NCBI GenBank assembly: GCA_037439425.1
Contig: JBBIWA010000010.1
Span: 41,590-105,589 of the forward strand
Source: Acidobacteriota bacterium
Lineage (GTDB): Bacteria; Acidobacteriota; Blastocatellia; RBC074
Direction of reading: 5' to 3'
DNA: 64,000 bases
Part shown: in pieces, positions 412 through 63,049 of the stretch
How positions within the stretch are numbered: the first letter of the stretch is position 1
Layout: the number at the start of each line of letters is the position of its first letter
The notes under the pieces: model-generated
What the model saw: the letters and a program-made list of their open reading frames with translations, nothing else
The model's database searches: none
What the model was told of the DNA's origin: nothing
Program-made: the position numbers and the translations under genes

Positions 412-2136
412 TTACCGCAGCAAGAGCCAGGTGAGGAAGACGAGCAGCACGACCCAGAGCCAACCAAGAGCAAAACCGAGCAGGTCTACCCGGTAAGCCC
501 GGAAGAACCCGACCCCGTGGGTTGCGCGGAACGGACGAAGCAGATTAACCAGCAGCGATTGTTGCCCCGCTTCAGCTGCTGCTTTGCCGAGTTCAGGATT
601 TGAAGGTTTCTCGCTGGGATTGCCTACAGCAGAAGCATCGGCTAACGGATCATCGGGGCGTCCTGGCAGTTCGGTCGGCGTTTGGAGCCGGCTGAAAAAC
701 GAGTTGATCTTTTGCGCTGGTTCCGGCGCCGTCACCAGGCTCACTATCACCAGCGCCGCTATCCCAGAGGCCAGGGCTGCCAGAAACACGTTGGGGTCGA
801 AGTAATCGAGCCTCTCACCTCGCAGATAGTAGAGCGTAAAATTGGTCGCAAACGCAACGATCAAACTTGCCACCGCACCCCAGCGATTAGCTCTCTGCCA
901 GATGATCCCTCCAAGGATGCTAATGCCCATAAAGGTCGCCATCGTCTCGGTGAGCAGGAAAGAGTAAAGCACTCTTTCAATCAGAAAGAGCGCGTAAAGG
1001 ACTCCGAGCATGGTGATCAAAAAACCGCTGATGCGTCCTACCCACAGATAATGACGATCGGGGCGATCCGTGACCAGATGGCGGCGATAAAAGCTTTCCG
1101 TAAAGAGCGCGCCGCTGTTGACCATAAAAGCAGAAGTCGTAGACATATTGGCTGCCAGCACGCTGGCAATCATCAATCCGAGCGCGCCGGGGAAGAGCAG
1201 CTGGCGGCAGGCAAAGCCGAAAGCGTCTTCCATATCTTTCAACTCGGTGACGCCGAAACTGCCTCTCGCCAGCGTTGCTGCGACAATCAAACCCACCAGC
1301 GCCCAGCCAACCGTGCATATACGTTTGACGAAATTGCCGTAGAAGAAGCCGACCCGGCAAGTATATTCGTCCCGGCCGGTGCCTACAGCAGCCAGCATAT
1401 GCGGCTGCGAAATGATCCCGATCAAGCCGTTGATCGTCAGCATGGTGATGTACCAGGGGCCGATTCCTTCAGGCGCAGCGAGTGAGAATTTGTAAGCTTC
1501 CAGCGACTCTTTCATTCCGCTCATCCCGCCAACTACATTCCAACCCAGCGGGATCAGCAGGAACGAAAGCGCAATGATCAGGAAGCCTTGAAGAAAGTCG
1601 GTCCAGGCAGCGGCGACCAGGCCACCGATGAAGCTGTAGAAGATGAAGATCGCCGTCATGGCGATGACGATCTCGTTGACTTCAAGCTGTCCACCGGTCG
1701 CTTGACTGATGACTTTGCCTGCGCCCTTGAGCATGCTTGCGGTGTTGAGCGTGAAGAAGAGGAGAGCAAAGATCGTATAAACGCCGCCCATCCACTTACC
1801 GTAGCGATCTTCGGTCAGCTCGGCAATCGTGGTGCGGCGGATGCGCCGAAAGACTGGCGCGAAGACCCAGAAGAAGGGCGTGGCGAAGAGATTCTTCCAC
1901 TGATACCAGATGCCGGAAAAGCCGATGTGGTAGACCGCGCCGGCCAACGAGACCGGCATCTCTGCGTGAGTCCCAACGCCGAAGCTTTGCCCGATCATGA
2001 GCCATTTGCCGAATCCACGCTTGCCCAAGAAATAGTGAGAAGTGTCTTTCACCTTCAGGCCGACAATGACTCCGACCGAAGCAACAATGACAAAGTAAGC
2101 GATCAGAACGATCCAATCAGCTGTGCTGATGAGCAT
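412..2136 (-). CDS. Sodium:solute symporter family protein
   Basis: Many TM helices, YFLGKRG, WTDFLQG and SVLAANMST motifs; ATG at 2136 preferred because the ORF-track extension starts inside a repeat. Confidence 0.9.
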   Translation of the reverse strand: MLISTADWIVLIAYFVIVASVGVIVGLKVKDTSHYFLGKRGFGKWLMIGQSFGVGTHAEMPVSLAGAVYHIGFSGIWYQWKNLFATPFFWVFAPVFRRIRRTTIAELTEDRYGKWMGGVYTIFALLFFTLNTASMLKGAGKVISQATGGQLEVNEIVIAMTAIFIFYSFIGGLVAAAWTDFLQGFLIIALSFLLIPLGWNVVGGMSGMKESLEAYKFSLAAPEGIGPWYITMLTINGLIGIISQPHMLAAVGTGRDEYTCRVGFFYGNFVKRICTVGWALVGLIVAATLARGSFGVTELKDMEDAFGFACRQLLFPGALGLMIASVLAANMSTTSAFMVNSGALFTESFYRRHLVTDRPDRHYLWVGRISGFLITMLGVLYALFLIERVLYSFLLTETMATFMGISILGGIIWQRANRWGAVASLIVAFATNFTLYYLRGERLDYFDPNVFLAALASGIAALVIVSLVTAPEPAQKINSFFSRLQTPTELPGRPDDPLADASAVGNPSEKPSNPELGKAAAEAGQQSLLVNLLRPFRATHGVGFFRAYRVDLLGFALGWLWVVLLVFLTWLLLR

Positions 2137-5585: not shown

Positions 5586-5595
5586 CCTCGTTTTC

Positions 5596-6100
5596 TCCTC
5601 CTCAGAAAAACCCTAGGCAGGCACGCATCCTTGCGTGCCTGTCCTCGTTAAGCCAGCCATTACCGCAGAGAAAGCACGCTGGAAGCGTGCGCTCGTGAGG
5701 GTTTCATCATCTCTCCCGCGTCGTCCGTGACGACATCAACGGCTCCTGCGGAAAAACCCTGGGAGCGCACGCATCCTTGCGTGCTCATTGGGGCTGAAGA
5801 TCTTGCACGCTAGATCAGCGTGCGCTCGTGAGGGTTTGATCGTCTCTCCCGCGTCGCAGCGCGAGCTGAATGACTCCTAGGAAAAACCCTGGGAGCGCAC
5901 GCATCCTTGCGTGCTTATTTCCATCAAGCGAGTCGTCATCTTCAGACTAAGCACGCTAGAAGCGTGCGTACCCAGGCTTAGAAAGTCCCTAGGAGCGCAC
6001 GCCGCTGGCGTGCTCGTCTGGTTAAGAGTGAAAATCCTGCACGCTAGATCAGCGTGCCTACCCAGGTTCTTATCGTTTCTCTCGCGTCGCCCAAGCGACA
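5596..6100. repeat. Tandem array of four REP doublets (family A, REPIN/BIME-like)
   Basis: Units start at 5611, 5757, 5887, 5987: CCCTGGGAGCGCACGCATCCTTGCGTGC-spacer-GCACGCTRGAAGCGTGCGCTC, joined by a linker with a GTCGTCCGTGACGAC hairpin. Confidence 0.92.
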
Positions 6101-16830: not shown

Positions 16831-17017
16831 GATTTCCCGAGAAATCTTTCATGCCGTCTTCGACGACACCTTGAGATGATGAAAAGCTCACGAGCGCCTG
16901 CTTGCGCGCTGCGCGCAGGCAAGCACGCTGACCTAGTGCGCTCGGTCTTCGGTAATGGCTTGCTTAACGAAGACCGGCACGCAAAGATGCGTGCGCTCCC
17001 AGGGATTTTCCGCAGGA
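16831..17017. repeat. Family A element in reverse orientation with a nested palindrome
   Basis: Linker, class I spacer and GCACGCAAAGATGCGTGCGCTCCCAGGGATTTTCCGCAGGA; extra GCCTGCTTGCGCGCTGCGCGCAGGC segment. Confidence 0.85.
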
Positions 17018-17118
17018 ACTGGTTGTGCATATCCGCCAGGCCTACCACAAGCTTGCCGAAGGATGGGGAGGCGCGCTTCATGAATTCCTCTAACCCCTTT
17101 CCTTCTCGCTGCCCACCA

Positions 17119-24142: not shown

Positions 24143-27100
24143 TTAGAAGTAGAGCTTCAATCCGAACTGAATGATGCGCGCGTTACCCGCCGTCAGAATC
24201 TGTCCAAAGCCGCTCGACTCGCGCCGAATATCGGGCGGGCCGAAATTGGCGCGATTGAAGGCATTGAACAGCTCGGTGCGGAACTGGAAGTAGCGCCGTT
24301 CAGTGAGATAGAAGTTCTTCGCCAGCGTGAAGTCGAAGTTCACCAAACCAGGGCCACGCATGATGCCGACCCCGGCGTTGCCGAAGGCCTGCGGCGCCGG
24401 GTTGTAGAAAGCAAACGCATCGGTATTGAACCAGCGCTGAATGCTTCTCTGAGATTCTGGCAAAACGGGATTGCCGACCAGGTTGGGACGGGCGCGGCGC
24501 TCACCGCCGAGACTGAGCACCGTGGCACCACTTACTGTGGCCGTGAGTCCCAGGCCGCCCTGCAACACGTGGATGCCAGTCACCTGCCAGCCGCCAAACA
24601 CCAGATCGGCAAACGTGCTCCAGTTATTGCCCCAGCGCCTGCCGCGCCCGAACGGAAGCTCATAGATGTAGCTGGCGACGAAGCGGTGCTTGATGTCGAA
24701 TTCGGCCAGCCCACGTTCGGCCTTCAGATTGTTTCCATCCTGCGGCTCACGGAAAGTGCCGGTATCAACGCCCGCGCCCGCGCCGCTGGTGGAGATATGA
24801 TCGGGCGACTCGGTCAACGCCTTGCCCCACGTATAGCTGACCAGCCCGGTCAAGCCGCTAGAGAAACGCTTCTCCAAACGCACTTGCAGCGAGTGGTAGC
24901 TAGAATTGACGCGGTTCTCCATCCACTGGATATCACCGAAGGCCGGGAATGGGCGCGCGCCAGCCGAGTGCGAGCCATTAGGATTGACGATCACCGCGCG
25001 CTGATTCAGATTGCGGAAGCCGTTCAGCTTCGTTCCCTTGTTGCCCACATAAGCCACATCCAGCAGCAGGTCTTTGACCAGCTCATACTGCATCCCGAAG
25101 TTGTACTGCTGGACGTAGGGACTGCGCTGGAAGGGGTCTTGCGCGCGACGCAGCACCGTGGGCGAAAGCGTGTTCGGATCGAGCAAGCCCGAAGGATAGC
25201 CGTTGACCAGACGGAAGATTGCTGCCGAGGCTACCGCCGCCGATCCCGTCACGTTGGTCTGCAACAGGTTGTCCACCAGGAAGGGCGGATTGAACCCAAG
25301 CAAGCCTTCGCGCCCTTGCCTGACGGTGTGCGTGTAGAAGATGCCGTAGGCGCCGCGAATCACCCAGCGCTGCGCCGCCTGATAAGCGAAGCCGAAACGC
25401 GGCGCGAAGTTGTTGCGATCCGGATGAATCAGCGCGCGCTCAAAAGTGCTGCCTGGCCGGGCGAAGAATACCGTGCCTGTCTTCGGATCGAAGTTAGCAA
25501 AGCGATTCTCCTTCTCCCGCGGCGGCGTCGCGTACTCATAGCGCAGCCCCAGATTCAAAGTGAGTTGGGGAGTCACCTTGAAATCGTCCTGCAGGAAGAG
25601 GAAGTACATATCCTGGCCCTGATCCATGATCGAGAGGCTGGTGAGCGCTAACTGAGAAGGCAGACCTAACAGCAGATCGCCCACCGCGCGTCCGGTGAAG
25701 CGATTATCGAAGTTCATGCGGCCAATGGTCGCATTCAGATCATTGATCTTGGTCTGAACATGCAGAAACTCCGTCCCGAACTTGAGGAAGTGGCGCCCCT
25801 GATTGAGGCTGAAAGTAGCACGTGGATTCCAGGAGCGCGGCGTCTGGAACTGCGGCGTGGAAGTGTGGCGCCCCACTGCGTCAAAGCCTTGAATGTTGAT
25901 CTTGGGCAGACCACCCAGGATCGCAGGGTTGTTCGGCACATTCTTTAATCCGACCTGCGCCGGGCCATCCACGCCAAAGTTGGGTGGGAAGGTGAAATAG
26001 TTGCCACGCGCCCAGCCAAAGCGAAAATCACCGACAAAGGCCGGATTGAAGGTCCAGGTCAAACCAATAGCCAGACCTTGCGAACGATTCTGGTTCGACC
26101 CGAAAGCATCATTGAACGATCCTTCAGCCAATCCAGGCAGCGGAGCCGGACGGAAGGTGTCGGTGTCTACGAAGCTGTAGCGAGTGAAGAAGTTGATATT
26201 TGGCGCGAACTGATGATCAACTCGGACATCGAATTGATCCTGTCGCGTGCGCGTGACCGGTGTCGAAGCATAGATCGTCGTGCCCGGCACATTCGGATCA
26301 GGGATGAGCGCCACGATCTTGGCTCCGACCGGATCCCAGAGGCTTTGCGGAATGACCCACTTCCCTTGAGCATTCTTGCTGAATTCGGGTCGCCCCGCCG
26401 CGAAAGGATTGAAGACAGCACTGCTGAAGATGCCAGCCTTCTCCTCCGCCGTGGGCACCCGCCGCACGCGCGGCACACCTTCACGCTCGCGCAAGCCCTC
26501 GTAATCCCCAAACCAGAAGGTGCGGTTTTTGACCAGCGGCCCACCGACTGCTGTGCCAAACTGATTGCGTTGGCGGCGGGGTTTCGGCGCGCCGAGCGCA
26601 TTGGAGAAGAAGTTGTTAGCATCCAGCACGTCGTTGCGCAAGAATTCATAAACGCTGCCGCGAATGCTGTTGGTCCCCGATTTGATCGTGGCGTTGACTA
26701 CAGCTCCAGAGCTGCGGCCAAACTCCGCCGAATAAGCGTTGGTTTGAATCTTGAACTCCTGCAACGCTTCGATTGAAGGCTGCACCAGTTGCACGTTTTC
26801 ACCGCGGAATGAGTTGGAGTAAGAGATGTTGTCCACCCCATCCAGCAGGAAGACGTTGTTGAAGGTGCGATTGCCGTTGACATTGAGCACGCCTTTGAAG
26901 TTGACCACTGCGAGCCGTGGCGTGCCTGGCAGGACGCCCGGCGAAAGCAGCGCGAGCTGATTGTAGTCGCGGCCATTCAAGGGCAAATCAACGATCTTCT
27001 TCTGATCTATGACCGAGCCGCGCGCCGAGGTCTCCGTCTCCAGCAGCGGTGCGGCTTCGACGATCTCAACGACTGTGGTCAGTTCCCCAATCTGCAAAGT

Positions 27101-27592: not shown

Positions 27593-30500
27593 TCAGAAGA
27601 CGAACTTCAAAGCAAATTGCATCAAGCGCGGATCGCCTGCCAGCGATGAGATGCGCCCTACATCGCTGCTGGAACGATTCGCATTGGGTAAGCCGAACTG
27701 CGGCGTATTGAACATATTGAACATCTCCCAGCGGAACTCCAGCCGGCGCCCTTCGCCGAAATACTCAAATGACCGCGCCAGGGCAAAGTCGAAATTGACA
27801 TACCCAGGCCCGTCCAGCGTGTTCCTGCCGCAGGTGCCCAAGCGTGCTGGCGTCGGCACCGCGTAAGCCGAAGTGTCAAACCAGCGGTCCACGTTGCGCT
27901 CATCGCCTGACAGCTTGCCGTCCCTCAAGCAATCGGCCAAGGCATTGGCCAACCCACCGCGATTGCCGACCAGGCTGTTGTTGGCGCTGGCGAAGACGGT
28001 GAAAGGACGCCCCGAACGGATGTTGGTCACACCGCTCAGGCGCCATCCCCCAAAAATATGCGCCGCCGGGCCAGCAGTCAGATAGCGGCGTCCCGGACCG
28101 AATGGCAGTTCGTAGATGTAGCTGGCGACAAAGCGATGCCGGATGTCGAAATCGCTGCGACCGCGTTGTGATTTGAGGTTGCGCGAATTCTGCATGAAGC
28201 TGTTCGAGCCGCCGCTGAAGAGATGCTCCATCCCGTAATCGAGCGACTTGGCGAAAGTGTAGGCAACGCGGAACGAAAGGCCCTGGCTGAAGCGCCGCTC
28301 AAGGGTCACCTCTCCACCGTGATAATTCGAGTTGCCTACATTGTCGCGGAACTCGATAGGGCCAAAGGCAGGGAAGGGAATGGTTCCCGTGCCGGTTCCA
28401 TCAGCATTGAAGAGTTGCTGGTTCAGATTGCGCAGGATGGAAAGATGCGTGCCTTTGGTGCCGACGTAGTCAATGGTCGCCACCATGTCACCGGGCAGCA
28501 GATACTGGAACCCAAGGTTCCACTGATCAACGCTCGGAGTGCGCGCATCCAGTGCCACCGCGCGCAACCGCACCGTCGCAGGATTGACCGCGCTCGGATC
28601 GAGCGAGAGATTAAATCCCGTCTGGACGCGCATGTTATTGGCCGTGGTACTGGTGCTTGTCACGCCCACCACGTTGTTGACCAGCCAGGGCAGGTTAAGT
28701 CCCAACTGATCTTCGCTGCCCGCGCGCTCAAAGAGCATATAGAACCGGCCATAGCCAGTGCGCATCACCAGCTTGTCCGTGATCTGATAGGCAATCCCGA
28801 AGCGCGGAGCCCAATTGTTTTTATCCGACTTGACCAGGCTGCGCCCAAATGGCGAGTTGGCGGGAGTGAAGGTTCTGCCCGTCGTAGGATCGAGGTTGGT
28901 CATGCGGTCTGCACCTTCATAGGGCCAGGTGGCGAAGTCATAGCGCAGACCGAGATTGAGCGTCAATCTGGGCGTCGCCTTCCAATCATCCTGGAAGAAC
29001 CCGGAGATCATCCACAGACGCTGATCCACCACAGCCAGATTCGACAGTTGCGCGCCCGAAGGATAACCGAGTAGGAAATCGGCCAGACCGATACCCGTGC
29101 GCTGTCCATCGAAATTCCACGTCCCGCGCAATCCCGGCACGTCGAGATAGATGTTGCGCATCGGCGCGCGCAGATCAATGCCGAACTTCATCTGATGCGC
29201 GCCGTAAGAAAGGCTCATCGTGTCGAGCCATTGAAATTGATTGGTGATCTGGAATTTAGGCAAAAAATCAGGCGAGCCGAGCCGGGTCGTCCCGCCAACG
29301 GTGCCACCGATGGTCGGCGTTCCGCCGCGCCCGCTGATGTTGATCCCCGGCAACCCGCCGCTGTAGACCGGGCTATCGGGCACTCCTTTGATGCCGAACT
29401 CGGCCAGCGTGTTTTGACCGAACGGGTCTTGATTGCCACGCGATTCGTTGCGTCCCCACCCCAAGCGGAATTCATTGATCAGCCGCGCCCCCAGCGTCCG
29501 CGTCCAACCAACGGCGGCCGAATGGGCCTTCATAATCAAGCGGCCAAAGGCCGAAGTTGAAGTGCCATCAATGATCCCGCCGAAAGCGCCAGGGACGAAG
29601 CGGAAGCGATCGGAATAGGTATAGCGCACGAAGATGCTATCGTTTGGGCTGGCCTGCCAATCACCCCGCGTGGTGAAGCTATCGGTGTCATCAATCAGAC
29701 TCGGAGTCCGAATGAAGTTCTGAACATTGAGCGGCCCTGATGCCGGCACCACGTTGGGCAGTGGCACCAGGCTTAGGATCTTCTGCGCTACCGGGTCCAA
29801 ACAAGCCGCCGGGATCTGATTATTCTTAAATGATCCGTCGGCTTCGAAGGCTGCTGGCACCTTAGCGCGACAATCGCCCACGCGATCAAAGAGCTTGGCA
29901 TAGCCACCGGAGATCCTGTTGGCTGCCGCTGCCGCTGCCGAAAAGTCGCCATTGCGTTCATTGGCAAGCGGCACATTAGCGGTGCGATTGAGTCCCTTAC
30001 GAATGCGCGTGCCTTCGTAGTTGAAGAAGAAGAAGGCGTGATTTCTGATGATCGGACCGCCGAGATTGCCGCCGAATTGATTCTGAATGTGCTGCGGTTT
30101 GTCGCGTCCGGCGCGATTGAGGAAAAAGTCATTAGCATCGAAGACGCGATTGCGATGGAATTCGTAGAGCGTGCCGTGAAACTCGTTCGAGCCACTGCGG
30201 GTGGTGACGCTGATGACGGCCCCGGGGCTGCGCCCATTCTCAGCATTGTACGGATTGGTGCTGACTTTGAATTCCTGAATCGAATCCACTGAAGGACGCG
30301 CCACCTGTGTGGTCAGCTCCTGTACGTTGGTCGAGATTGAATTATTATCCACGCCATCGAGCACGAAGTTATTTTGCAGCGAGCGCACTCCGTGCACATT
30401 AGCGCCGCCTGTGCGTCCGGCTGCCGTCCCACCGCCTTGCTCGGTGTAACGGTCTGCTTGCACCCCTGCGACCAGAGTCAGCAAATCATCCCAGTTGCGC

Positions 30501-30952: not shown

Positions 30953-30956
30953 ATAT

Positions 30957-31230
30957 TCCTCCTCCGAAAGAAAATCCCTAGGAGCGGCAGCATCCTTGCG
31001 TGCTCGTTAAGAGTGGAAAGCCCCGCACGTTCGCAAGCGTGCGCTCCCAGGATGTTCATTGCTTTCAGGGTGTTATCAAAGACGACATGCACGACTCCTC
31101 GGAAAATTCCTGGGAGCGGCAGCATCCTTGCGTGCTCGTTGATATTGAAAACCCTGCACGCTGGAAGCGTGCGCTCCCAGGTTCTCACTATCTCTGGGCG
31201 TCGTCGTGATTACATGGACGACCCCTCAGA
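30957..31230. repeat. Two tandem family A units with linkers
   Basis: Units at 30976-31051 and 31109-31181, both with class III spacers. Confidence 0.9.
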
Positions 31231-31415
31231 TATTCATAACTTGAACTCAGCACCAGATAGACCGCTGCTGAGCAGGCACACTACGTCTTCGATGTCAAAG
31301 AGTAAGTCAGCTCCGACTCCTCAACACCGACGCAACATCCCAGCTAGCCCAAAAGGCAGGTGAATCTGATTTCCCGTTTTGTTGTCTTTACAGTGTAATT
31401 CTTCTCGATCCCAGC

Positions 31416-43750: not shown

Positions 43751-43761
43751 AATTTTGCCTT

Positions 43762-44003
43762 TTGCGGAAAATCCTGGGCAGGCACGCATCCTTGCGTGCT
43801 TGGCTTGGTTAAGCAAGCCATTACCGAAGACCGAGCACGCTCGCAAGCGTGCGTACCTAGGTTTTCATCATTTCTGGGCGTCGTCCGTGACGACATGAAA
43901 GACTCCTCGGAAAATTCTGGGTACGCACGCATCCTTGCGTGCTTGGCTTCGACGAGCGAGCTATCGTCAGAAAGTAGCACGCTCGCAAGCGTGCGCTGCC
44001 AGG
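43762..44003. repeat. Two tandem family A units between the LacI gene and iolB
   Basis: Class I and class II spacers with a full linker containing GTCGTCCGTGACGAC. Confidence 0.92.
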
Positions 44004-44015
44004 CTTTCTCCTCTC

Positions 44016-45023
44016 TCAAGACGCAGGCGCAGCAGTCGACTCTCTGATGATCAATTCGCCATTGACCTTGAGGCTGGTCTTGGTTTGCTCGCCGGAAAAG
44101 AGCTTGAGCAAGATCTGCATCGCCAGGCGTCCCATCTGCCGCATCGGCTGGCGGATGGTGGTCAGTGGCGGATGGGTATAAGAAGCGATGAATAGATCAT
44201 CAAAGCCTACGAGCGAGACCTCCTCAGGCACGCGCAATCGCTGCCTGCGAAGGACGCACAGCGCACCCAGAGCTGACATATCGTTGTAACAAAAGACCGC
44301 CGTGGGTCTTTCAGCCAGCTCAAGCAGCTTCTCCATAGCCTGCGCGCCACCTTCAGCCTTGCCATCGCCGTGCACGATCAGTTCCGGTCTGAAAGGTAGA
44401 TCAGCCAGTTCCAGCGCCTGCCGATAGCCCGTAAACCTCTCGGTGTCGGATTGAAACCCGAACCGATCGCCGAGATAGGCAATCCGCCTGTGACCCAGCT
44501 CGATCAGATGCTCCGTGGCCAGGCGGCCCGCAGCTACGTTGTCTATCATCACTGAGTGCGCAAACTCGCTGGGGTGTTGATTGTTGATGAGCACAATCGG
44601 CACCTGCATTTGCGCTAGTCGCGGCATATAGAGCGCACCGACGCGCGAAGCCAGGACTAAAATTCCATCCACGCGCCGCTCGTGGAAAGAATGCACGACT
44701 TTGATTTCACGCTCCGGATCGGCATTAGAATTGGCCAGCAACACCGAGTAATCGTGATCGTTGGCTACTTCTTCCACACCGCTGACCACCTCAGCGATAA
44801 AAGGGTCAGCAATCGTGGTGACAACGATGCCAATCGTATGCGTCTTGCGCGTGACCAGACTGCGCGCCACGGCGCTGGGACGGTAACCCAGCCGCCGCGC
44901 GATTTGCCGGATCCGGTCTGCCGTCTCGCGGTTGACCAGCGGGCTGCCGCGCAAGGCGCGTGAAACTGTCGCGTGCGAGACATTGGCCGCGCGCGCGATG
45001 TCTTTGATCGATATCTCATTCAT
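44016..45023 (-). CDS. LacI family transcriptional regulator (probable iol repressor)
   Basis: SIKDIARAANVSHATVSRAL HTH, YRPSAVARSL, GFDD, PPLTT. Confidence 0.95.
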   Translation of the reverse strand: MNEISIKDIARAANVSHATVSRALRGSPLVNRETADRIRQIARRLGYRPSAVARSLVTRKTHTIGIVVTTIADPFIAEVVSGVEEVANDHDYSVLLANSNADPEREIKVVHSFHERRVDGILVLASRVGALYMPRLAQMQVPIVLINNQHPSEFAHSVMIDNVAAGRLATEHLIELGHRRIAYLGDRFGFQSDTERFTGYRQALELADLPFRPELIVHGDGKAEGGAQAMEKLLELAERPTAVFCYNDMSALGALCVLRRQRLRVPEEVSLVGFDDLFIASYTHPPLTTIRQPMRQMGRLAMQILLKLFSGEQTKTSLKVNGELIIRESTAAPAS

Positions 45024-46951: not shown

Positions 46952-47086
46952 TACGGCGAGAGAGTAGAGTGCAAATGAAGATCAAGCCACGAAGGATCAG
47001 GCCCGTGAGAAGTCAGCAGGTCCGCAACTCTGAGCTCTCTTCGTGATGTTGCGTGTCCTTTGTGGTTCGCCTTCCGAGGAGGATTT

Positions 47087-47881
47087 ATGGAGATCAACCG
47101 GAGAGCCTTCCTGGCCACATTGGGCGGGGCTGCTGCCGTTGAGACGATGTCGTCCGAGGCGCTAGCCGACGCGCTCGAACACCATATGATCCGATGGCTC
47201 GATCAAGCCGCCAGCACGATGCCCGACCAGCAGGTCGAGGTTACAGGAATGAAGTATCGGCGCGGGGTGGGCACTCTCTTCGTGCCCGGTGAGGACCGCG
47301 CTGCGCTGAGGAAGCTGGAACCGATGCCACCCAAACCGACGCTGCTGGACTTCTTTCAGCTGCGGTTTGCTCCGGCCAACCACGTGTTGCAAAGCGCCAC
47401 TCGTGCGCTGAAAACAGGGATGAGCGAAGAGACGATCCTCGCTTGCCTGCTGCACGATGTGGTCCTGAGTCTGATCAAGCCCGATCACGGATGGTGGGGC
47501 GCACAGCTTGTGGAACCCTATGTCTCCGAGAAGGTGAGTTGGGCGATTCGTTATCATCAGGCGCTGCGCTTCTATCCAGACCTGTCAGTCGGTTATGAAT
47601 ACCCGGAGATGTATAACCGGATCTTTGGCCGGGACTACGTGCCGCCCCCTTACATTGAGGCTGCATACAAATATGCCCGCAATCACAGGTGGTATATGGA
47701 AGCTCGCCTGATCACAGTCAACGATCTGTACAGTTTTGATCCGAGCGCCAAAGTTTCCATTGAGCCATTCATTGACATCATCGGGCGCCATTTCAAGCAG
47801 CCCAAAGAAGGGTTGGGCAATGACAACAGCCCGGTAGCCCATATGTGGCGAACGATCGCCAACCCGGACCAGCCACTGTAA
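47087..47881 (+). CDS. Tat-signal HD-domain protein (PhnZ/MIOX-like metal ligand pattern)
   Basis: NRRAFL twin-arginine motif; HVLQSATRA, CLLHD, DH, RYH and ND residues. Confidence 0.78.
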   Translation: MEINRRAFLATLGGAAAVETMSSEALADALEHHMIRWLDQAASTMPDQQVEVTGMKYRRGVGTLFVPGEDRAALRKLEPMPPKPTLLDFFQLRFAPANHVLQSATRALKTGMSEETILACLLHDVVLSLIKPDHGWWGAQLVEPYVSEKVSWAIRYHQALRFYPDLSVGYEYPEMYNRIFGRDYVPPPYIEAAYKYARNHRWYMEARLITVNDLYSFDPSAKVSIEPFIDIIGRHFKQPKEGLGNDNSPVAHMWRTIANPDQPL

Positions 47882-47958
47882 GAGATGAAAATCAAACTAT
47901 GCAGAGACTTCATGCTTCCTGCGAGAGACGCGATGAAAGGTTTGCAAGTTTGAGCTCT

Positions 47959-48117
47959 GATTTTCCGCAGGAGTCATTCAGCTCGCTTGAGCGACACCCA
48001 GAAACGATGAAAAGCCGGGTACGCACGCTTGCGAGCGTGCTTGGTCTTCGGTAATGGCTTGCTTAACGAAGGCAGGCACGCAAGGATGCGTGCGTACCCA
48101 GGATTTTCCGCAGGAGG
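47959..48117. repeat. Single family A unit bounded by 15-bp direct repeats
   Basis: GATTTTCCGCAGGAG at 47959-47973 and 48102-48116. Confidence 0.92.
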
Positions 48118-48121
48118 AACC

Positions 48122-49549
48122 ATGTCCCGGAAGATACTGATCGCAATCGTGAACAGTGCGCTCCTGTCACTGCTAGCCTTTACCCAGAGCGCCCCAACGG
48201 TGCTTGAGAAAGCGGCGCAAGCGATGGGAGCGACCGACCTCAAATCAATCCAATATTCGGGCAGCGGCTATAACTTTGCTGTCGGTCAGAGCGTCAACCC
48301 AACAGCGCCGTGGCCTCGTTTCAATGTGAAGAGCTACACGCGCACGATCAACTTCGACACGGCCTCATCACGAGAAGAGCTACTGCGCACGCAAGGCGAA
48401 AATCCGCCACGAGGTGGCGGCGGTCAGCCGCTCATCGGCGAGCAGCGCCAAATACTTCTCGTGAGCGGCAACTATGCTTGGAACCTGGTCGGCAACAACG
48501 CTGTCCCGGCACAGGCAGCCGCGGAAGAACGCCAGCTCCAGATCTGGCTCACGCCCCAGGGTTTTATCAAAGCTGCCCTGAAGCACAAGGCGAGCGCCAC
48601 ACCGCGCACCGCTGGCGGCAAGAGAGTCACCGTAGTCTCTTTCACCGTGCACAACAAGTTCCAGGTGAGCGGAATAATCAATGCTGAGAATCTGGTCGAG
48701 CGGGTTGAGACTGCGATTGAGCATCCTTTGCTCGGTTCCCTGCCGATAGTGACGACCTACTCGGATTACAAAGACTTCAGCGGCATCAAGTTCCCCACCC
48801 GCATCGTCCAGCGTCAGGGCGGCCACCCTGCGCTGGAGATCACTATTGCTCAGGTGCAACCGAACGCAACGGCTGATTTCGCCGTGCCTGATAACGTCCG
48901 CCAGGCTCCAGCGCCAACGGTTCGAGTGGAGACGCAGAAGCTGGCCGAGGGCGTGTGGTATCTGACGGGCGGATCGCATCACAGCGTGGCCGTGGAATTC
49001 AAGGATTATGTCGTAGTGATCGAAGGCCCGCTCAACGAGGCGCGCTCACTGGCCGTTATGGATGAAGTGAAAAAGGCGGTGCCGAATAAACCGATCCGGT
49101 ATCTGGTCAACACACACCACCACTTCGATCATGCGGGCGGCATTCGTGCCTACGCCGCCCGGGGCGTGACGATCATCACTCATCAGATCAACAGGCCGTA
49201 TTACCAGAAAGTGCTGCGCGGCCTGAAGCTGGTCAAGATCCTCTCCCTCACCGACAAATACGTTTTGACCGATGGGATGCGCCTGCTGGAGCTGTATCAC
49301 GTCAAAGGGAACACGCACAACGATGGGATCATCATGGCTTATCTTCCCAAAGAGAAGCTACTGATCGAAGCTGATGTGTTCACCCCACCCGCCGCAGGCG
49401 CGCCGCCACCATCTACGCCCAATCCTTTCAGCGTGAATTTGCACGAGAACATCGAGCGGCTCAAACTCGCCGTCGAGCAGATCGCGCCGCTGCACGGGCG
49501 GCTGGTACCAATGGCAGAGTTGCTGAAAGCCATCGGGAAGGCTGGCTAG
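48122..49549 (+). CDS. Secreted MBL-fold metallo-hydrolase
   Basis: Signal peptide, THHHFDH (HxHxDH), EAD, PLHG. Confidence 0.88.
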   Translation: MSRKILIAIVNSALLSLLAFTQSAPTVLEKAAQAMGATDLKSIQYSGSGYNFAVGQSVNPTAPWPRFNVKSYTRTINFDTASSREELLRTQGENPPRGGGGQPLIGEQRQILLVSGNYAWNLVGNNAVPAQAAAEERQLQIWLTPQGFIKAALKHKASATPRTAGGKRVTVVSFTVHNKFQVSGIINAENLVERVETAIEHPLLGSLPIVTTYSDYKDFSGIKFPTRIVQRQGGHPALEITIAQVQPNATADFAVPDNVRQAPAPTVRVETQKLAEGVWYLTGGSHHSVAVEFKDYVVVIEGPLNEARSLAVMDEVKKAVPNKPIRYLVNTHHHFDHAGGIRAYAARGVTIITHQINRPYYQKVLRGLKLVKILSLTDKYVLTDGMRLLELYHVKGNTHNDGIIMAYLPKEKLLIEADVFTPPAAGAPPPSTPNPFSVNLHENIERLKLAVEQIAPLHGRLVPMAELLKAIGKAG

Positions 49550-52375: not shown

Positions 52376-53278
52376 ATGGTCACTAAAAACCTCTACGTCC
52401 AAGACACGGAAATGCCACTTCCGCCGAAAGAGGTGCTGCCAACGATGCATGACCTACCTGACGAAGAGGAGGGACAGCCTGGTATGCCGGATATCTTTCA
52501 TGTCTGGCAAGCGCGCTTGCTGGATGAAACCTTCCGCCCACCCAACTACGAGCCAGAGGAAATCTTCACAGCCAGCGACCTGAACATTTACTACAACGTC
52601 CACGACTTCAGCCAGCACAAGCGTCCTGACTGGTTTGCTGTGGTGGGGCTGCCGAAGCTGGGCAAGAAGCCGGAGATGCGCCGGAGCTATGTGATGTGGC
52701 AGGAAGGCCTGGCTCCGCTGATCGTGGTGGAATTGCTTTCGCCTAGCACCGAGAAGGAGGATCTCGGCCAGACACCGCGTGGAGCTAATGAACCGCCGAC
52801 CAAGTGGGAGGTCTACGAACACTGGTTGCGTGTGCCCTATTACGTGATCTTCAGCCGTTACACTGATGAGTTGCGCATCTTTAAGTTGTCAGGGCCCTAT
52901 TACCAGGAGGTCCAAGATCATCAGGGGCGACTCTGGGTTGAGGGAGCCGAGCTGGGGCTGGGGCTGTGGCAGGGCCGCTACCTGGGCGAAGACCGGCTTT
53001 GGCTGCGGTGGTATGACCGTGAGGGCAATTGGATCCCGACACCAGCGGAACAGGCTGAGCAGCAACGTCGCCTCGCCGAGGCAGAGCGGCAACGCGCCGA
53101 GGCAGAGCGGCAACGCGCCGAGGCAGAGCGGCAACGCGCCGAGTCAGAGCGACAACGCGCCGAGGCAGAGCGGCAACGCGCCGAGGCAGAGTGCAAAGAG
53201 AAAGAAGCGGCCTGGCAGAGAGCGCAACAATTAGAAGCCAAACTGCGCGAGCTGGGAATTGATCCCGACCGGATGTAG
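52376..53278 (+). CDS. Uma2/DUF820 family endonuclease-fold protein
   Basis: LPTMHDLP, RPDWF, SYVMWQEG, VELLSPST, WLRWYD, LRELGIDP. Confidence 0.9.
   Translation: MVTKNLYVQDTEMPLPPKEVLPTMHDLPDEEEGQPGMPDIFHVWQARLLDETFRPPNYEPEEIFTASDLNIYYNVHDFSQHKRPDWFAVVGLPKLGKKPEMRRSYVMWQEGLAPLIVVELLSPSTEKEDLGQTPRGANEPPTKWEVYEHWLRVPYYVIFSRYTDELRIFKLSGPYYQEVQDHQGRLWVEGAELGLGLWQGRYLGEDRLWLRWYDREGNWIPTPAEQAEQQRRLAEAERQRAEAERQRAEAERQRAESERQRAEAERQRAEAECKEKEAAWQRAQQLEAKLRELGIDPDRM
53074..53191. repeat. 21-bp coding tandem repeat (~5.6 copies, AEAERQR)
   Basis: CGCCGAGGCAGAGCGGCAACG units. Confidence 0.92.
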
Positions 53279-55447: not shown

Positions 55448-55685
55448 TTTTCCCAGGAGTCTTTCAGGGCGTTACGGACGACGCGGGAAAGACGATGAAA
55501 ACCTGGGTACGCACGCTTCTAGCGTGCAAGCTTTTCACTCTTAACCAGGCGAGCACGCAAGAACGCGTGCCTGCCCAGGATTCGCCCTGGGAGCGCACGT
55601 TTGCGAGCGTGCTGCTTTCTAACAATAGCTCGCTCGTCGAAGCCAAGCACGCAAGGATGCGTGCCTGCCCAGGATTTTCTGAGGA
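55448..55685. repeat. Two tandem family A units
   Basis: Linker, class III unit (55502-55579) and class II unit (55586-55673), ending ATTTTCTGAGGA before ATG 55691. Confidence 0.92.
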
Positions 55686-55690
55686 AAGAG

Positions 55691-62733: not shown

Positions 62734-62881
62734 CGGCAGCCATCCTTTCTGTGGCCTGGTTGTTAGTTTGGATGGGAGATATGGAAGAGTCATCTTACAG
62801 CGGTTTTCAGTGGCGTGTCTAGATGAATGGGTTTGACTGACGGCTGATGCCTGAGCTCTGACAACTGGGGTGGGAGAAAAT

Positions 62882-63049
62882 CCTCCTGCGGAAGGTCCCG
62901 GGAGCGCACGCATCCTTGCGTGCTCGGTCTTCGTCAAGCAAGCCATTACCGAAGACCGAGCACGCTCGCAAGCGTGCGCTCGTGAGGTTCTCATCGTTTC
63001 TCTGGGCGTCGTCCGTGACGACCTGAAAGACTTCTCGGAAAATCCCTGA
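62882..63049. repeat. Single family A unit plus linker
   Basis: CTCCTGCGGAAGGTCCCGGGAGCGCACGCATCCTTGCGTGC, class I spacer, linker ending TCGGAAAATCCCTG. Confidence 0.92.

Follow-up and report, generated by a model that had tools for sequence, protein, structure and literature searches.

The intergenic region ahead of the gene that starts at 48122 carries an exact 15-bp direct repeat, GATTTTCCGCAGGAG, at 47959-47973 and again at 48102-48116, with a period of 143 bp. The second copy closes with GGAG at 48113-48116. Next come GAACC and the ATG at 48122 of a 475-codon open reading frame (ORF), which leaves a gap of 5 nt, and this GGAG is presumably the Shine-Dalgarno (SD) sequence of the putative MBL-fold gene. 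The locus raises the question of what kind of element ends in the ribosome-binding site (RBS) of its neighbour, and how it came to lie there. The original prediction saw a circular unit of ~145 bp that integrates at SD-like sequences and regenerates the RBS. It had correctly described the perfect repeat, its period and the RBS position of the second copy, and the further copies that it named are present as well: four arrays that abut start codons (5594-6100, 30956-31231, 43756-44022 and 55448-55687), three copies that begin and end in variants of the motif (at 16833, 55448 and 62878) and, as exceptions, two that face no start codon (16833-17019 and 2431-2520). With up to three mismatches, the 15-mer matches seven times in the window, that is, the whole stretch of 64,000 nt that was analysed, whereas 100 shuffles gave 2.83 matches on average and never more than 6. 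The features discussed below are collected in Table 1.

Table 1. Features at the seed locus (47040-49549), other copies in the window and the transposase gene; positions are those of the window unless a contig is named.
Feature	Position	Strand	Description
U1-J unit	47040..47081	+	...GTGATGTTGCGTGTCCTTTGTGGTTCG + CCTTCCGAGGAG; GGAG 47078-47081, 5 nt before ATG 47087
Upstream gene	47087..47881	+	264 codons from ATG 47087; stop TAA 47879-47881
Decayed short upstream unit	47903..47973	+	L-like head ACTTCATGC...GATGAAAG, U3-type GTYTGA-rich linker, tail J 47959-47973; limits approximate, by eye
L module of full unit	47974..48014	+	TCATTCAGC, hairpin GCTCGC-TTG-AGCGAC, then CCCAGAAACGATGAAAAG; part of the family profile
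P core	48015..48102	+	Two inverted REP hairpins within outer arms CCGGGTAC.../...GTACCCAGG; REPIN-like palindrome of ~88 nt
Tail J of full unit	48102..48116	+	Second copy of the 15-mer; full unit = 47974-48116
MBL-fold gene (candidate)	48122..49549	+	475 aa, secreted-looking; candidate assignment, label from HHHFDH motif by eye
Four-unit array	5594..6100	-	Tail end TTTTTCTGAGGAGGAGA + aaacgagg + ATG; full junction ...TTTTTCTGAGGAGGAGAaaacgaggATG
Unit	16833..17019	+	Tail GATTTTCCGCAGGAA intact, without adjacent start codon; both neighbour genes opposed
Two-unit array	30956..31231	-	Tail end TTTTCTTTCGGAGGAGGAA + tat + ATG; junction TTTTCTTTCGGAGGAGGAAtatATG
Two-unit array	43756..44022	-	Tail end ...TTTTCCGCAAAAGGCA + aaatt + ATG of minus-strand gene; junction TTTTCCGCAAAAGGCAaaattATG
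Two-unit array	55448..55687	+	Tail end ATTTTCTGAGGAAA + gag + ATG; junction TTTTCTGAGGAAAgagATG
Full unit	62878..63043	-	Tail CCTTCCGCAGGAG; no start codon within 89 nt
RAYT gene	C15:55143-55766		NCBIfam NF047646 (REP-associated tyrosine transposase), 83.3 bits, cut-off 80

The two 15-mers belong to a large repeat family. Merging the 1034 matches that a second nhmmer iteration gave on the two strands leaves ~603 non-overlapping units (233 of full length) in 425 intergenic arrays, occupying 68,443 bp or 1.1% of the 6.0-Mb genome, which is probably that of a member of the Blastocatellia (Acidobacteriota). Overlap with a called gene exceeds 30 nt in only 37 of the 603 units, the calls being those of an ad hoc ORF-based caller (4398 genes, 80.5% of the bases). 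Each unit is built from a head hairpin, L, which may be absent, a core, P, or one of its short substitutes U1 and U3, and a 3' tail J, (A)TTTTCCGCAGGAG. The combinations seen are L-P-J, P-J, U1-J and L-U3-J, and the tail alone is common to all of them; the ~145-bp unit that had been proposed as the element is thus only one of several that share nothing but J. The consensus P arms read CCTGGG(A/T)(G/A)CGCACGC, and GCACGC-N6-GCGTGC is present twice, in inverted orientation, within complementary outer arms, which is a REPIN-like layout. The consensus fold of eight window copies comprises the L hairpin, the two REP hairpins and the outer stem, and a perfect L stem of at least 5 bp occurs in 73 of the 233 full units, compared with 5% of shuffles. 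In the seed copy, the REP hairpins are GCACGC-TTGCGA-GCGTGC (48023-48040) and GCACGC-AAGGAT-GCGTGC (48077-48094), and the P core forms a long palindromic fold with a predicted energy of -78.8 kcal/mol (z -3.9); the single terminator-like call at the seed locus is the left REP hairpin.

The U1 module has 32 copies in the genome, 27 of which were aligned, against none for a reversed-pattern control, and the short U1-J units, which lack any REP core, are likewise located at gene starts. One of them accounts for the site at ATG 47087, where CCTTCCGAGGAG, GATTT and ATG follow one another at 47070-47089: the motif noticed there is real, but it is not an empty or relic site, since a U1 pattern match at 47050-47068 makes it the tail of a U1-J unit. 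Loose searches for U1-U4 motifs with two mismatches gave matches no commoner than in the nulls, and only the longer U1 pattern forms a clean family. The L-U3-J arrangement of the decayed unit upstream of the seed copy is seen more clearly at C83:268-334, with examples of U3 and J also at other sites. A strict definition of J yields 250 copies (null: 23), of which 194 come immediately after the end of P; bare J, unattached to any module, is near chance (35 versus 23). Unit periods are 143 or ~105 nt and are not multiples of three. A role of L as a leader peptide (GGAG-N6-ATG...) was considered and rejected, given the variable ATG in L and unit lengths not divisible by three. The median pairwise identity among units is 71%. 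Arrays are not recent duplications, because neighbouring units within them are hardly more alike than random pairs (74.9% versus 71.6% identity), and more than 95% identity is reached in only 4 of 81 adjacent pairs. A search of the whole window against Rfam returned no match at the gathering thresholds, and with E values up to 1 the sole match was a chance-level miRNA model (E 0.15; 19.4 bits, where the gathering score is 90).

The conserved, SD-like end of the family lies at start codons throughout the genome. Among 284 arrays with an intact tail, 150 (53%) have a start codon that lies 3-14 nt past the tail GGAG and opens an ORF of at least 80 codons, and in these 150 of 284 the tail is, by position only, the carrier of the RBS of the downstream ORF. 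The spacing has its mode at 5-6 nt (35, 37, 19 and 22 cases at 5, 6, 7 and 8 nt, respectively), and the start codons are ATG in 130 cases (87%), GTG in 13 and TTG in 7. By comparison, 1645 of 11319 intergenic GGAG (14.5%) and 840 of 3743 intergenic AGGAG (22.4%) outside the elements stand at start spacing, a null that includes uncalled genes, which lowers its rate; at the mirror-image 5' end of the arrays such a start is found in 9 of 240. If the arrays were placed uniformly within their gaps, 24.9 of 222 loci would be expected to show the arrangement, and 131 do, which bears out the expectation that distances between element ends and starts would be non-random genome-wide. The predicted orientation is seen as well, in that the downstream gene runs in the same direction as the array in 304 cases and against it in 95 (207 versus 63 when only co-directional gene pairs are counted), and divergent gaps hold 90 arrays compared with 31 in convergent ones. 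Where an array stops at P and lacks the tail, a start lies within 30 nt in only 10 of 47 cases, and 134 of the 284 tails have no neighbouring start.

A signal of this kind could in principle arise from geometry and annotation, if the repeats simply fill short gaps, GGAG is common and ORF-based start calls do the rest. Indeed, the gene calls are ad hoc, and 10.1% of random genome positions pass the start criterion. However, the peak at 5-8 nt is sharp, the 53% contrasts with 10-22% in the nulls, neither the mirror end nor uniform placement reproduces the observed counts, and most of the starts are ATG, those of rplI and eno being also confirmed by homology. We regard such an artefact as scarcely credible.

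The boundaries of the units show to which side the SD-like motif belongs. Conservation of J amounts to 1.4-1.8 bits per position and falls to zero directly after GGAG. In the motif at the 5'-most end of arrays, GGAG is kept (1.0-1.4 bit), whereas the T-rich half is mostly lost (0.2-0.6 versus 1.4-1.8 bit). Bare J is near chance, as noted above, and native SDs do not have the T-rich context, so the tail belongs to the repeat. On the same two grounds, the candidate explanation that J is a native leader motif that hosts insertions was rejected. There is one GGAG at each junction, and each junction within an array has one J motif. The 5' motif favours GAGGAG (58 versus 24 for CAGGAG) and the 3' motif CAGGAG (84 versus 31); GAGGAG makes up 58 of 179 5' flank motifs, while AAGGAG is the commonest form among 640 native SD sites. 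The 5' flank is thus unlike native SDs, and the upstream GGAG may therefore be either the repeat's own or a preferred J-like target.

These boundaries also bear on the idea that a ~143-bp double-stranded circle integrates site-specifically at SD-like sites, with an att-like core of ~13-15 bp that is duplicated or shared and so regenerates the RBS. The perfect 15-mer on both sides of the copy at 47959-48116 and the single J motif at every array junction are what such a process would leave. Yet no signal of target-site duplication was found: within an array, the 5' motif differs from the 3' motif by a mean Hamming distance of 5.22, compared with 5.30 for shuffled pairs (z -0.8; 179 arrays), and identical 13-mers occur in 8 of 179 pairs, where 4.3 are expected and shuffles reach as many as 11. 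By this same comparison, a flanking duplication of the MITE type is absent. Moreover, the two ends favour different variants, the T-rich half is largely gone at array starts, the tail is common to units of very different content and length, and the window shows no attC-like or other Rfam family. The upstream 15-mer of the seed copy itself is part of a decayed preceding unit. The 15-bp direct repeat at 47959 and 48102 is the tail J of two consecutive units rather than a duplicated target or shared recombination core, and integration of a double-stranded circle is highly improbable.

Comparison with related genomes indicates what stood at some of these sites before. The rpsR-rplI spacer has 314 nt in this genome and contains two units; it reads TAG, 21 nt ending in GGAGGAG, the units ending in GGAG, 8 nt and ATG. 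In 25 relatives the same spacer is ~9-177 nt long and usually has a GGAG-type SD (GGAG, GGGAG or GGAGG) ~7-10 nt before the ATG. Upstream of eno, the order is CAAAAGGAG, L-P-J...GGAG, ACCAGATTGCA and ATG here, and most relatives have an A-rich AAGGAG ~9-13 nt before the ATG; the 5' flank of the eno element resembles this ancestral AAGGAG. In one relative (G018), the GGAG of the element at eno is followed by AAGGTCATTTTTATG, which is the spacer behind the native AAGGAG in its congener G004. The entire spacer upstream of GGAG differs between the two, and this pair therefore represents a replacement and not a clean insertion. As judged from these alignments, the tail GGAG at rplI and eno is at the place of the ancestral SD, with the spacer between SD and ATG kept. 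At a hutH-like locus, empty sites in relatives have the sequence CCTGGAGG, pointing to a target of the CCTGG type in that genus. In other genera, related elements likewise end just before an SD and ATG, and one locus carries the element in two species of a single genus (L055/L060). With its median identity of 71%, the family is old and diverse, and, given this shared locus, it appears to be vertically inherited. Orthologues of the MBL gene were found in 3 of 30 family genomes, with no empty site for the seed copy among them. The 475-aa protein also has homologues in soil metagenome contigs, with identity up to 57%, and the corresponding metagenome loci (≤57% identity, 285 kb) carry no element.

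A plausible source of mobility is encoded in the genome. The RAYT (REP-associated tyrosine transposase) gene on contig C15 is a single-copy gene, and against PDB its product matched only 4ER8 (TnpArep; E 2.9e-8), with the HUH and Tyr regions aligned. The alignment pairs NHVHTL with EHMHCI and YIENNPVKAG with YIYINPVKHG, and we take NHVHTL and YIENNPVKAG to be the HUH motif region and the catalytic Tyr region, respectively. In relatives, P-core-like matches adjoin the orthologous gene at 8 of 19 loci, in most of these on either flank; in G018, one flank holds seven tandem REPs identical to the left P arm, and the opposite flank holds inverted REP copies. The flanks of the C15 gene itself contain no recognisable P core, only a degenerate L-end with a CCTGGGTAGGCGCGCG hairpin and a short CCTGGGT...ACCCAGG hairpin. 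The presence of a RAYT with flanking cores in relatives means that a transposition route is available, and this single-copy enzyme of the HUH/Y1 type, which would act on hairpins in single-stranded DNA, is the most likely agent of the spread.

Taken together, we favour, with a probability of about 0.6, a modular family of the REP/REPIN type that is spread by the RAYT, integrates next to GGAG and places its own tail GGAG at the SD position of the downstream gene. That the RAYT drives mobility, that GGAG is the integration site and that the tail works as an SD are all inferred from sequence. The simplest mechanism would be strand-specific integration directly beside GGAG by a single-strand HUH route, 3' of a short target as in IS200/IS605; the upstream flank keeps GGAG, each junction has one GGAG and no target-site duplication is detectable. 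The terminal GGAG of the unit would then replace the displaced SD, and fresh insertions next to an existing tail could build the head-to-tail arrays. Placement of a unit either 3' or 5' of the native GGAG would fit the sequence. HUH enzymes of the IS200/IS605 type use circular single-stranded DNA, and a circular intermediate of that kind is therefore conceivable. A stronger version, in which the SD tetranucleotide is the integration site proper of a RAYT/REPIN system that homes to RBSs on the sense strand and rebuilds them with its own tail, is possible but doubtful.

On the favoured reading, at least 150 genes would be preceded by one or more hairpins, a U-rich stretch and a repeat-borne SD, and it may be asked whether the host, rather than the transposase, has put them there. 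According to this alternative, the combination of hairpin, U-rich stretch and SD benefits expression as an RNA module, spreads mainly by recombination or gene conversion and owes its position to selection; the gain might come from a more stable mRNA, from a processing site, from an insulated RBS or from partial termination ahead of re-initiation. Array orientation follows the gene in 98 of 128 cases, at least as well as it follows GC skew (88 of 128), with 21 versus 11 discordant cases in favour of the gene. The layout of a hairpin followed by an SD recurs in several genera, also with unrelated palindromes in the same spacers, and U1-J units without any REP core stand at gene starts too. The age and diversity of the family and the locus filled in two species of one genus also agree with a selected module. 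However, the RNA-level tests do not lend it support. Outside J-J pairs, the hairpins show no strand asymmetry (739 wobble pairs versus 686 A-C mismatches). The outer-arm 6-mers are perfectly complementary in 38 of 226 units, compared with 30.9 in shuffles, which is chance level; the alifold covariation term of the consensus fold is +1.28 and not favourable, and RNAalifold returned nothing of use for 150 profile-aligned units. Predicted accessibility is the same for the tail GGAG (0.35, n=132) as for native GGAG SDs (0.32, n=150; p = 0.28), and the notion of an RBS 'insulator' is therefore unsupported. A simple consensus scan of the seed copy found no sigma-70-like promoter site in 47850-48200, and a RAYT with flanking cores already offers a route by transposition. 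We consider host selection unlikely as the main cause; it is compatible with RAYT-driven spread and does not exclude it, and the enrichment at starts could come partly from selection after insertion.

Discussions of REP and REPIN repeats usually place them at the 3' ends of genes, and we know of no account that establishes where and how RAYTs insert REPs. The coincidence of the unit-end GGAG with the SD of the next gene provides a readable landmark in this respect, with which the place where a RAYT system integrates can be tested directly. By position, the family is also a natural example of a repeat that furnishes a large number of genes with ribosome-binding sites, which has a bearing on how mobile DNA can persist harmlessly in dense genomes and on whether many unrelated genes have a common 5' leader. 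If homing to SD sequences were true, a domesticated transposon would have rewritten the initiation regions of at least 150 genes, or ~3% of the total, and the shared leader of hairpin, U-tract and SD might be regulated or processed by the cell as a group.

In several respects the family resembles known REP/REPIN-RAYT systems: it consists of hundreds of short, G+C-rich, extragenic palindromes (603 units at 425 loci), its core is formed by two inverted REPs that make a long hairpin, and a single-copy HUH/Tyr transposase is present, with REPs of this kind beside its orthologues at 8 of the 19 loci in relatives. Like the BIMEs as treated in part of the Delihas 2011 review (PMC3184786), the units form mosaic clusters with other motifs. 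Unlike REP/REPIN elements, they have a conserved 13-nt tail that ends in GGAG and an extra head hairpin, they are strongly oriented and lie at gene starts, with the preference for divergent gaps given above, and no clean REPINs flank the RAYT gene here. The REPs of Pseudomonas syringae show the opposite bias, toward convergent genes, in the passage of the same review that deals with them. Those described in the relevant part of Di Nocera 2013 (PMC3733652) have a GTAG/CGTC tetranucleotide tag at the REP end, whereas none was seen by eye in the consensus arms here.

The closest counterpart that we found is Neisseria REP2; a search of open-access papers and preprints gave no description of a tail-bearing REP family of this kind. 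In the section of the Delihas review devoted to them (PMC3184786), REP2 elements are intergenic repeats of 120-150 bp with two internal stem-loops and no TIRs that lie directly upstream of ORFs and bear an RBS; the same section credits them with a promoter and an ATG of their own and ~26 copies, and mentions no link to a transposase. As in REP2, and in IR-A/IR-B of Borrelia as covered there, stem-loop repeats in intergenic regions upstream of ORFs supply, here by position, the RBS. In contrast to REP2, our family comprises ~600 units in arrays, its core is a REP doublet of the RAYT type, the start codon is the gene's own, conservation stops at GGAG before it, and the seed copy has no sigma-70-like promoter. 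MIRUs, in the part of the review that concerns them (PMC3184786), are tandem intergenic units of 40-100 bp in polycistrons whose ends overlap the neighbouring genes and which contain ORFs and tetranucleotide direct repeats. The units described here are likewise tandem and intergenic, but their period is not divisible by three, the ATG-like triplet in L varies and no target-site duplication is detectable.

The remaining comparison is with IS200/IS605-family elements and their hairpin-ended miniature derivatives, whose mechanism is well established. The likeness lies in the hairpin ends, the lack of target duplication, the short conserved motif in the upstream flank, the HUH/Y1 enzyme family and, as far as it can be deduced here, strand-specific insertion. 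Examined for a fixed target of the IS200/IS605 type, the arrays show the upstream GGAG at 1.0-1.4 bit and no duplication, together with first units that begin inside L in 80 of 420 arrays and with other junctions in relatives. Unlike in IS200/IS605, no IS200-type tnpA is associated with the repeat: the genome has nine Y1_Tnp matches at six loci, and none of the six is flanked by it. The Y1 transposase copy on contig C44 carries its own, different REP.

The element at 47959 is a tail-bearing REPIN-type repeat, that is, an inverted REP doublet that carries a tail. A profile search seeded with this copy returned 446 matches from the 6.0-Mb, 145-contig genome in its first round and 1034, on both strands, in its second. 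Many loci score on both strands because the core is palindromic, and collapsing overlaps left 603 units, 233 of them full length. They cover 68,443 bp in total (~1.1% of the genome) and stand at 425 loci (292 single, 97 double, 27 triple and 9 quadruple), only 5 of which mix orientations; with genes called by a simple method of our own (4398 genes, 80.5% of bases), 37 of the 603 units share more than 30 nt with a gene. The only exact match to a 34-letter core pattern in the species collection came from a Blastocatellales MAG, so that the genome probably belongs to Blastocatellia; diverged versions of the repeat were found in 10 of the 30 relatives searched and 9 of the 18 within the same bacterial family, a tally that includes the unpublished genome G002, on which no result given here rests.

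Oriented as the copy at 47959(+), a full unit has three parts: a head hairpin module (L), a core (P) and a 3' tail ending in GGAG (J). P is one ~30-nt hairpin present twice in inverted orientation, and is predicted to fold as a single long hairpin (-78.8 kcal/mol for 196 nt, z -3.9). The consensus fold of eight window copies comprises the L hairpin, two small hairpins and a closing stem, with compensatory changes in 4 of 27 pairs and an unfavourable covariation term. Units occur as L-P-J, as P-J or as short forms in which other modules replace P, the tail being common to all types; within arrays (head-to-tail units at one locus), internal units begin at profile position 1-12 (83 cases) or 48-64 (62 cases). 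The substitute module U1 has 32 genome copies, against none for a reversed-pattern control, and in the 27 aligned copies it is followed by a J-like motif, beyond which lies an L-P-J unit or, several times, directly a gene start. A second substitute, U3, is a GTCTGAR-rich linker. Taken as a repeat in its own right, with 31 sites besides the one in the window, U1 is rich in CTTCGTG motifs, usually has the J-like motif on its 3' side, and in several copies abuts a gene start with no REP core. It was also seen that the L head reads GGAG-TCTTTC-ATG in many copies (profile consensus positions 12-21), mimicking an SD and start codon; since the T of this ATG is variable, a conserved mini-ORF is unlikely.

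Parts of the repeat unit and positions of the features discussed (window positions unless a contig or locus is named)
Feature	Position	Length	Sequence or description
L, head		~41 nt	TCTTTCAKG, small hairpin, CCCWGAAAnGATGAAAAC
P, core		~88 nt	CCTGGG(A/T)(G/A)CGCACGC-loop-GCGTGC ... GCACGC-AAGGAT-GCGTGCG(Y)(W)CCCAGG
J, tail			(A)TTTTCCGCAGGAG
Profile seed	47959-48124
15-mer, first copy	47959-47973	15 nt	GATTTTCCGCAGGAG
15-mer, second copy	48102-48116	15 nt	GATTTTCCGCAGGAG, exact; period 143 bp
GGAG ending the second 15-mer	48113-48116		followed by GAACC
Start codon	48122		ATG of a 475-codon ORF with MBL-type HHHFDH motif
Stretch just 5' of the full unit	~47903-47973		(G)AG / ACTTCATGC...GCGATGAAAG / GTTTGCAAGTTTGAGCTCTGA / TTTTCCGCAGGAG
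Clearer example of that unit type	C83:268-334
U1, window copy	47040-47081		…TGCGTGYCCTTYGTGGTTC
RAYT gene	C15:55143-55766	208 aa
Second REP family beside Y1_Tnp copy, L002 (G000:C44)	1360-1450, 1950-2070		…GCTGCGGTCAGGAGCGAGCTGTTTATAGA… and inverse
Perfect palindrome, L228 (G004:C62)	~1440-1500	15 nt	CTGGGCGCGCCCAGG, then GTTTTTCGAGGAGG
Direct repeat	24634-24731, 28084-28181	98 nt	72% identity, 3450 bp apart
Head-to-tail repeats	53049-53195	21 bp each	~seven, GCCGAGGCAGAGCGGCAACGC-like

The perfect 15-bp direct repeat whose second copy precedes the start codon of the MBL gene is present exactly as originally described, and the four other abutments on start codons named for the window are all real. 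At up to 3 mismatches, the 15-mer has 7 matches in the window, where 100 shuffles average 2.83 and never exceed 6. The stretch just 5' of the full unit consists of an L head, now decayed, followed by a U3-type linker and a tail, so the two 15-mers are the tails of two consecutive units. What had been taken for an empty or relic site before ATG 47087 is instead the tail of a U1 unit.

The original prediction also held that a ~145-bp circular unit integrates at SD-like sequences and regenerates the RBS. A model of this kind with a double-stranded circle and a duplicated target is unsupported: the 13-mers at the two ends of the 179 arrays with both ends intact gave no target-site duplication signal genome-wide. 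Their mean Hamming distance was 5.22 within an array and 5.30 between shuffled partners (z -0.8), and 8 of the 179 pairs were identical, where 4.3 were expected and shuffles reached 11. The end preferences also differ, GAGGAG (58) exceeding CAGGAG (24) at the 5' end and CAGGAG (84) exceeding GAGGAG (31) at the 3' end. Information in the T-rich half of the motif is 1.4-1.8 bits per position at junctions inside arrays and at their 3' end, and 0.2-0.6 at the 5' array edge, where GGAG retains 1.0-1.4 bits; directly beyond the 3' GGAG conservation is zero. Strict copies of J (at most 1 mismatch) number 250 against 23 in a reversed-genome null: 194 directly follow the end of P, 21 follow a U-type module, and the 35 that follow neither are close to chance. 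Native SDs, taken from 640 genes without a nearby element, have no T-rich context and prefer AAGGAG. With the near-chance number of unattached copies, this makes the tail a part of the repeat and not a leader motif of the host.

By position, the tail is strongly associated with ribosome-binding sites. It is intact in 284 of the 420 single-orientation arrays, and in 150 of these a start (the first ATG, GTG or TTG to open an ORF of 80 codons or more) is found 3-14 nt past the GGAG; 130 of the starts are ATG, 13 GTG and 7 TTG, and 35, 37, 19 and 22 arrays have distances of 5, 6, 7 and 8 nt. The same holds at 10.1% of random genome positions and, in intergenic sequence outside the elements (a null diluted by uncalled genes), at 1645 of 11319 GGAG (14.5%), 840 of 3743 AGGAG (22.4%) and 4.5% of the complement CTCC. 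A mirror test outward from the 5' end gave 9 of 240, uniform placement within gaps predicts 24.9 cases at 222 loci where 131 were observed, and of 47 tailless arrays ending at P only 10 have a start at 30 nt or less. Arrays share the direction of the downstream gene in 304 cases and oppose it in 95 (207 against 63 between co-directional genes); divergent gaps hold 90 arrays and convergent gaps 31. Orientation agrees with the gene in 98 of 128 cases and with local GC skew in 88 of 128; where the two conflict, 21 cases side with the gene and 11 with the skew, a non-significant difference. Post-insertion selection may also contribute to the enrichment at starts. The idea that the repeat donates ribosome-binding sites is supported by position, and also by two loci, rplI and eno, compared among relatives, where the tail GGAG stands at the SD position.

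Our rpsR-rplI spacer measures 314 nt, against ~9-177 nt in the 25 relatives in which the S18 stop was found (of 29 loci), and consists of TAG, 21 nt ending GGAGGAG, two units, and GGAG with AAACAATT before the ATG. In the relatives, rplI usually has a GGAG-type SD (GGAG, GGGAG or GGAGG) ~7-10 nt before its ATG, often behind an unrelated hairpin or short tandem repeat. At eno (29 loci including ours), most relatives have an A-rich AAGGAG ~9-13 nt before the ATG, and ours reads ...TCTTCAAAAGGAG / TTGTCGATG...(L-P-J)...CTGCAGGAG / ACCAGATTGCA ATG. Here the upstream flank resembles the ancestral SD, and the tail GGAG now stands in its stead at the same spacing. Of the two possible placements, 3' of a native GGAG (the tail GGAG being the unit's own) or 5' of it (the upstream GGAG being the unit's own), the eno flank favours the first. 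In the relative G018, eno has a related element ending CCGAGGAG / AAGGTCATTTTTATG, and in its congener G004 a different palindrome precedes AAGGAG / AAGGTCATTATG; the junction is exact on the 3' side, and the upstream spacer is replaced wholesale.

Three further G018 loci were compared with congeners. The first is filled against two empty sites (GTTTAATGTCCyyrCCTGGAGGTyktTAAATG), the junction lying inside the SD region; the second is matched by a collapsed remnant, CTGGGCGCGCCCAGG, with the tail still present; the third is again a wholesale replacement. The G004 palindrome at L228 occupies the place of a full REPIN in G018 and resembles a REPIN that has collapsed or been excised with its tail retained. 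Among 20 elements from four other genera, many end a few nt from an SD and ATG (by eye, including L042, L052 and L055-L060), and L055 and L060 are one locus in two species. From these comparisons, a hairpin followed by an SD is characteristic of the bacterial family, and its elements outlast speciation. Elsewhere, the spacers before the SD hold different short tandem or palindromic repeats (rpsR-rplI L030, L037, L032, L033, L013 and L014; eno L196, L208 and L214), with heptamers such as CTGTCTA, TGCCAAC, CCGACCA, GGGAGTA and CAACCGG in other genera, and in this bacterial family hairpin repeats seem to have a general hot spot in the spacer just 5' of the SD. At L034 (G041), an unrelated hairpin (GCGGTCCGG...CCGGACCGC) is followed by a J-like ATTATCCGCAGGAG that stands 8 nt from the rplI ATG; other genera may carry J-like tails on hairpin repeats of other kinds.

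The source genome has six Y1_Tnp loci, and the repeat was not found in the flanks of those that are IS200-like. The IS200/RAYT-like gene on contig C44, which contains an internal TAA, has its own, unrelated REP family on both sides. The single-copy gene on contig C15 encodes a protein with a weak Pfam match that passes the NCBIfam model NF047646 (REP-associated tyrosine transposase, RAYT) at 83.3 bits (cut-off 80); its sole PDB match is 4ER8 (TnpArep), with the HUH and tyrosine regions aligning. It has matches at E <=1e-20 in 17 of 30 relatives, and at 8 of 19 loci taken from relatives the repeat profile matches positions of the P core next to the gene, in most cases on each side. In G018 the gene is followed by the left arm of P, CCTGGGAGCGCACGCTTCYAGCGTGCTT, in seven tandem copies of 28 nt, and preceded by inverted copies. 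The flanks of our own gene are degenerate, with an L-end-like stretch and then CCTGGGTAGGCGCGCG...CGCGCGCAGCCAGG on one side, and CCTGGGT...ACCCAGG, an SD and the start of the gene itself on the other. From these matches and flanks, P reads as a REPIN-like doublet of the REP belonging to this RAYT clade, whose enzyme would mobilise the repeat.

Judged by the similarity of their units, the arrays did not arise by recent tandem duplication. Adjacent units are barely more alike than random ones (74.9% against 71.6% identity, p = 0.007; above 95% in 4 of 81 adjacent pairs), and random P-core pairs have a median identity of 71% (5th-95th percentile 59-85%). The unit starts inside L in 80 of 420 first units against 7 of 173 internal units, which points to erosion or truncation at the upstream array edge. 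We propose that units travel as single strands by the action of a RAYT-type HUH enzyme and would be joined on the sense strand directly beside GGAG; the terminal GGAG of the unit would then act as the SD, and arrays would grow by insertion beside an existing tail. The motif at the 5' array edge is unlike ordinary SDs, so the preferred target may resemble J, or else the tails of decayed units may account for many of the 5' motifs.

The analyses gave no sign of an effect on expression. Numbers of wobble pairs and A-C mismatches are balanced (739 against 686), outer arms pair at chance (38 of 226 against 30.9), and predicted SD accessibility equals that of native genes; a scan of the seed copy gave no promoter-like site. 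We may speculate that a hairpin followed by AUUUU and an SD provides the upstream gene with a 3' stabiliser or a weak terminator, and the gene downstream with a 5' hairpin.

In the literature, the closest kinds are REP/REPIN-RAYT systems and BIME-type mosaics (Bertels and Rainey 2011; Di Nocera 2013, PMC3733652; Delihas 2011, PMC3184786). Closest for the ribosome-binding site is Neisseria REP2, described as a 120-150-bp repeat upstream of ORFs with two stem-loops, a promoter, RBS and ATG (Delihas 2011, PMC3184786). The same source gives Pseudomonas syringae REPs as biased towards convergent genes, the opposite of the gap bias found here. A search of open-access papers and preprints yielded neither a REP/REPIN family whose tail bears an SD nor any description of such repeats from Acidobacteria.

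Two other repeats were seen in the window. The 98-nt direct repeat probably marks two paralogous genes, and the 21-bp repeats would, if coding, be in frame as 7-residue repeats.
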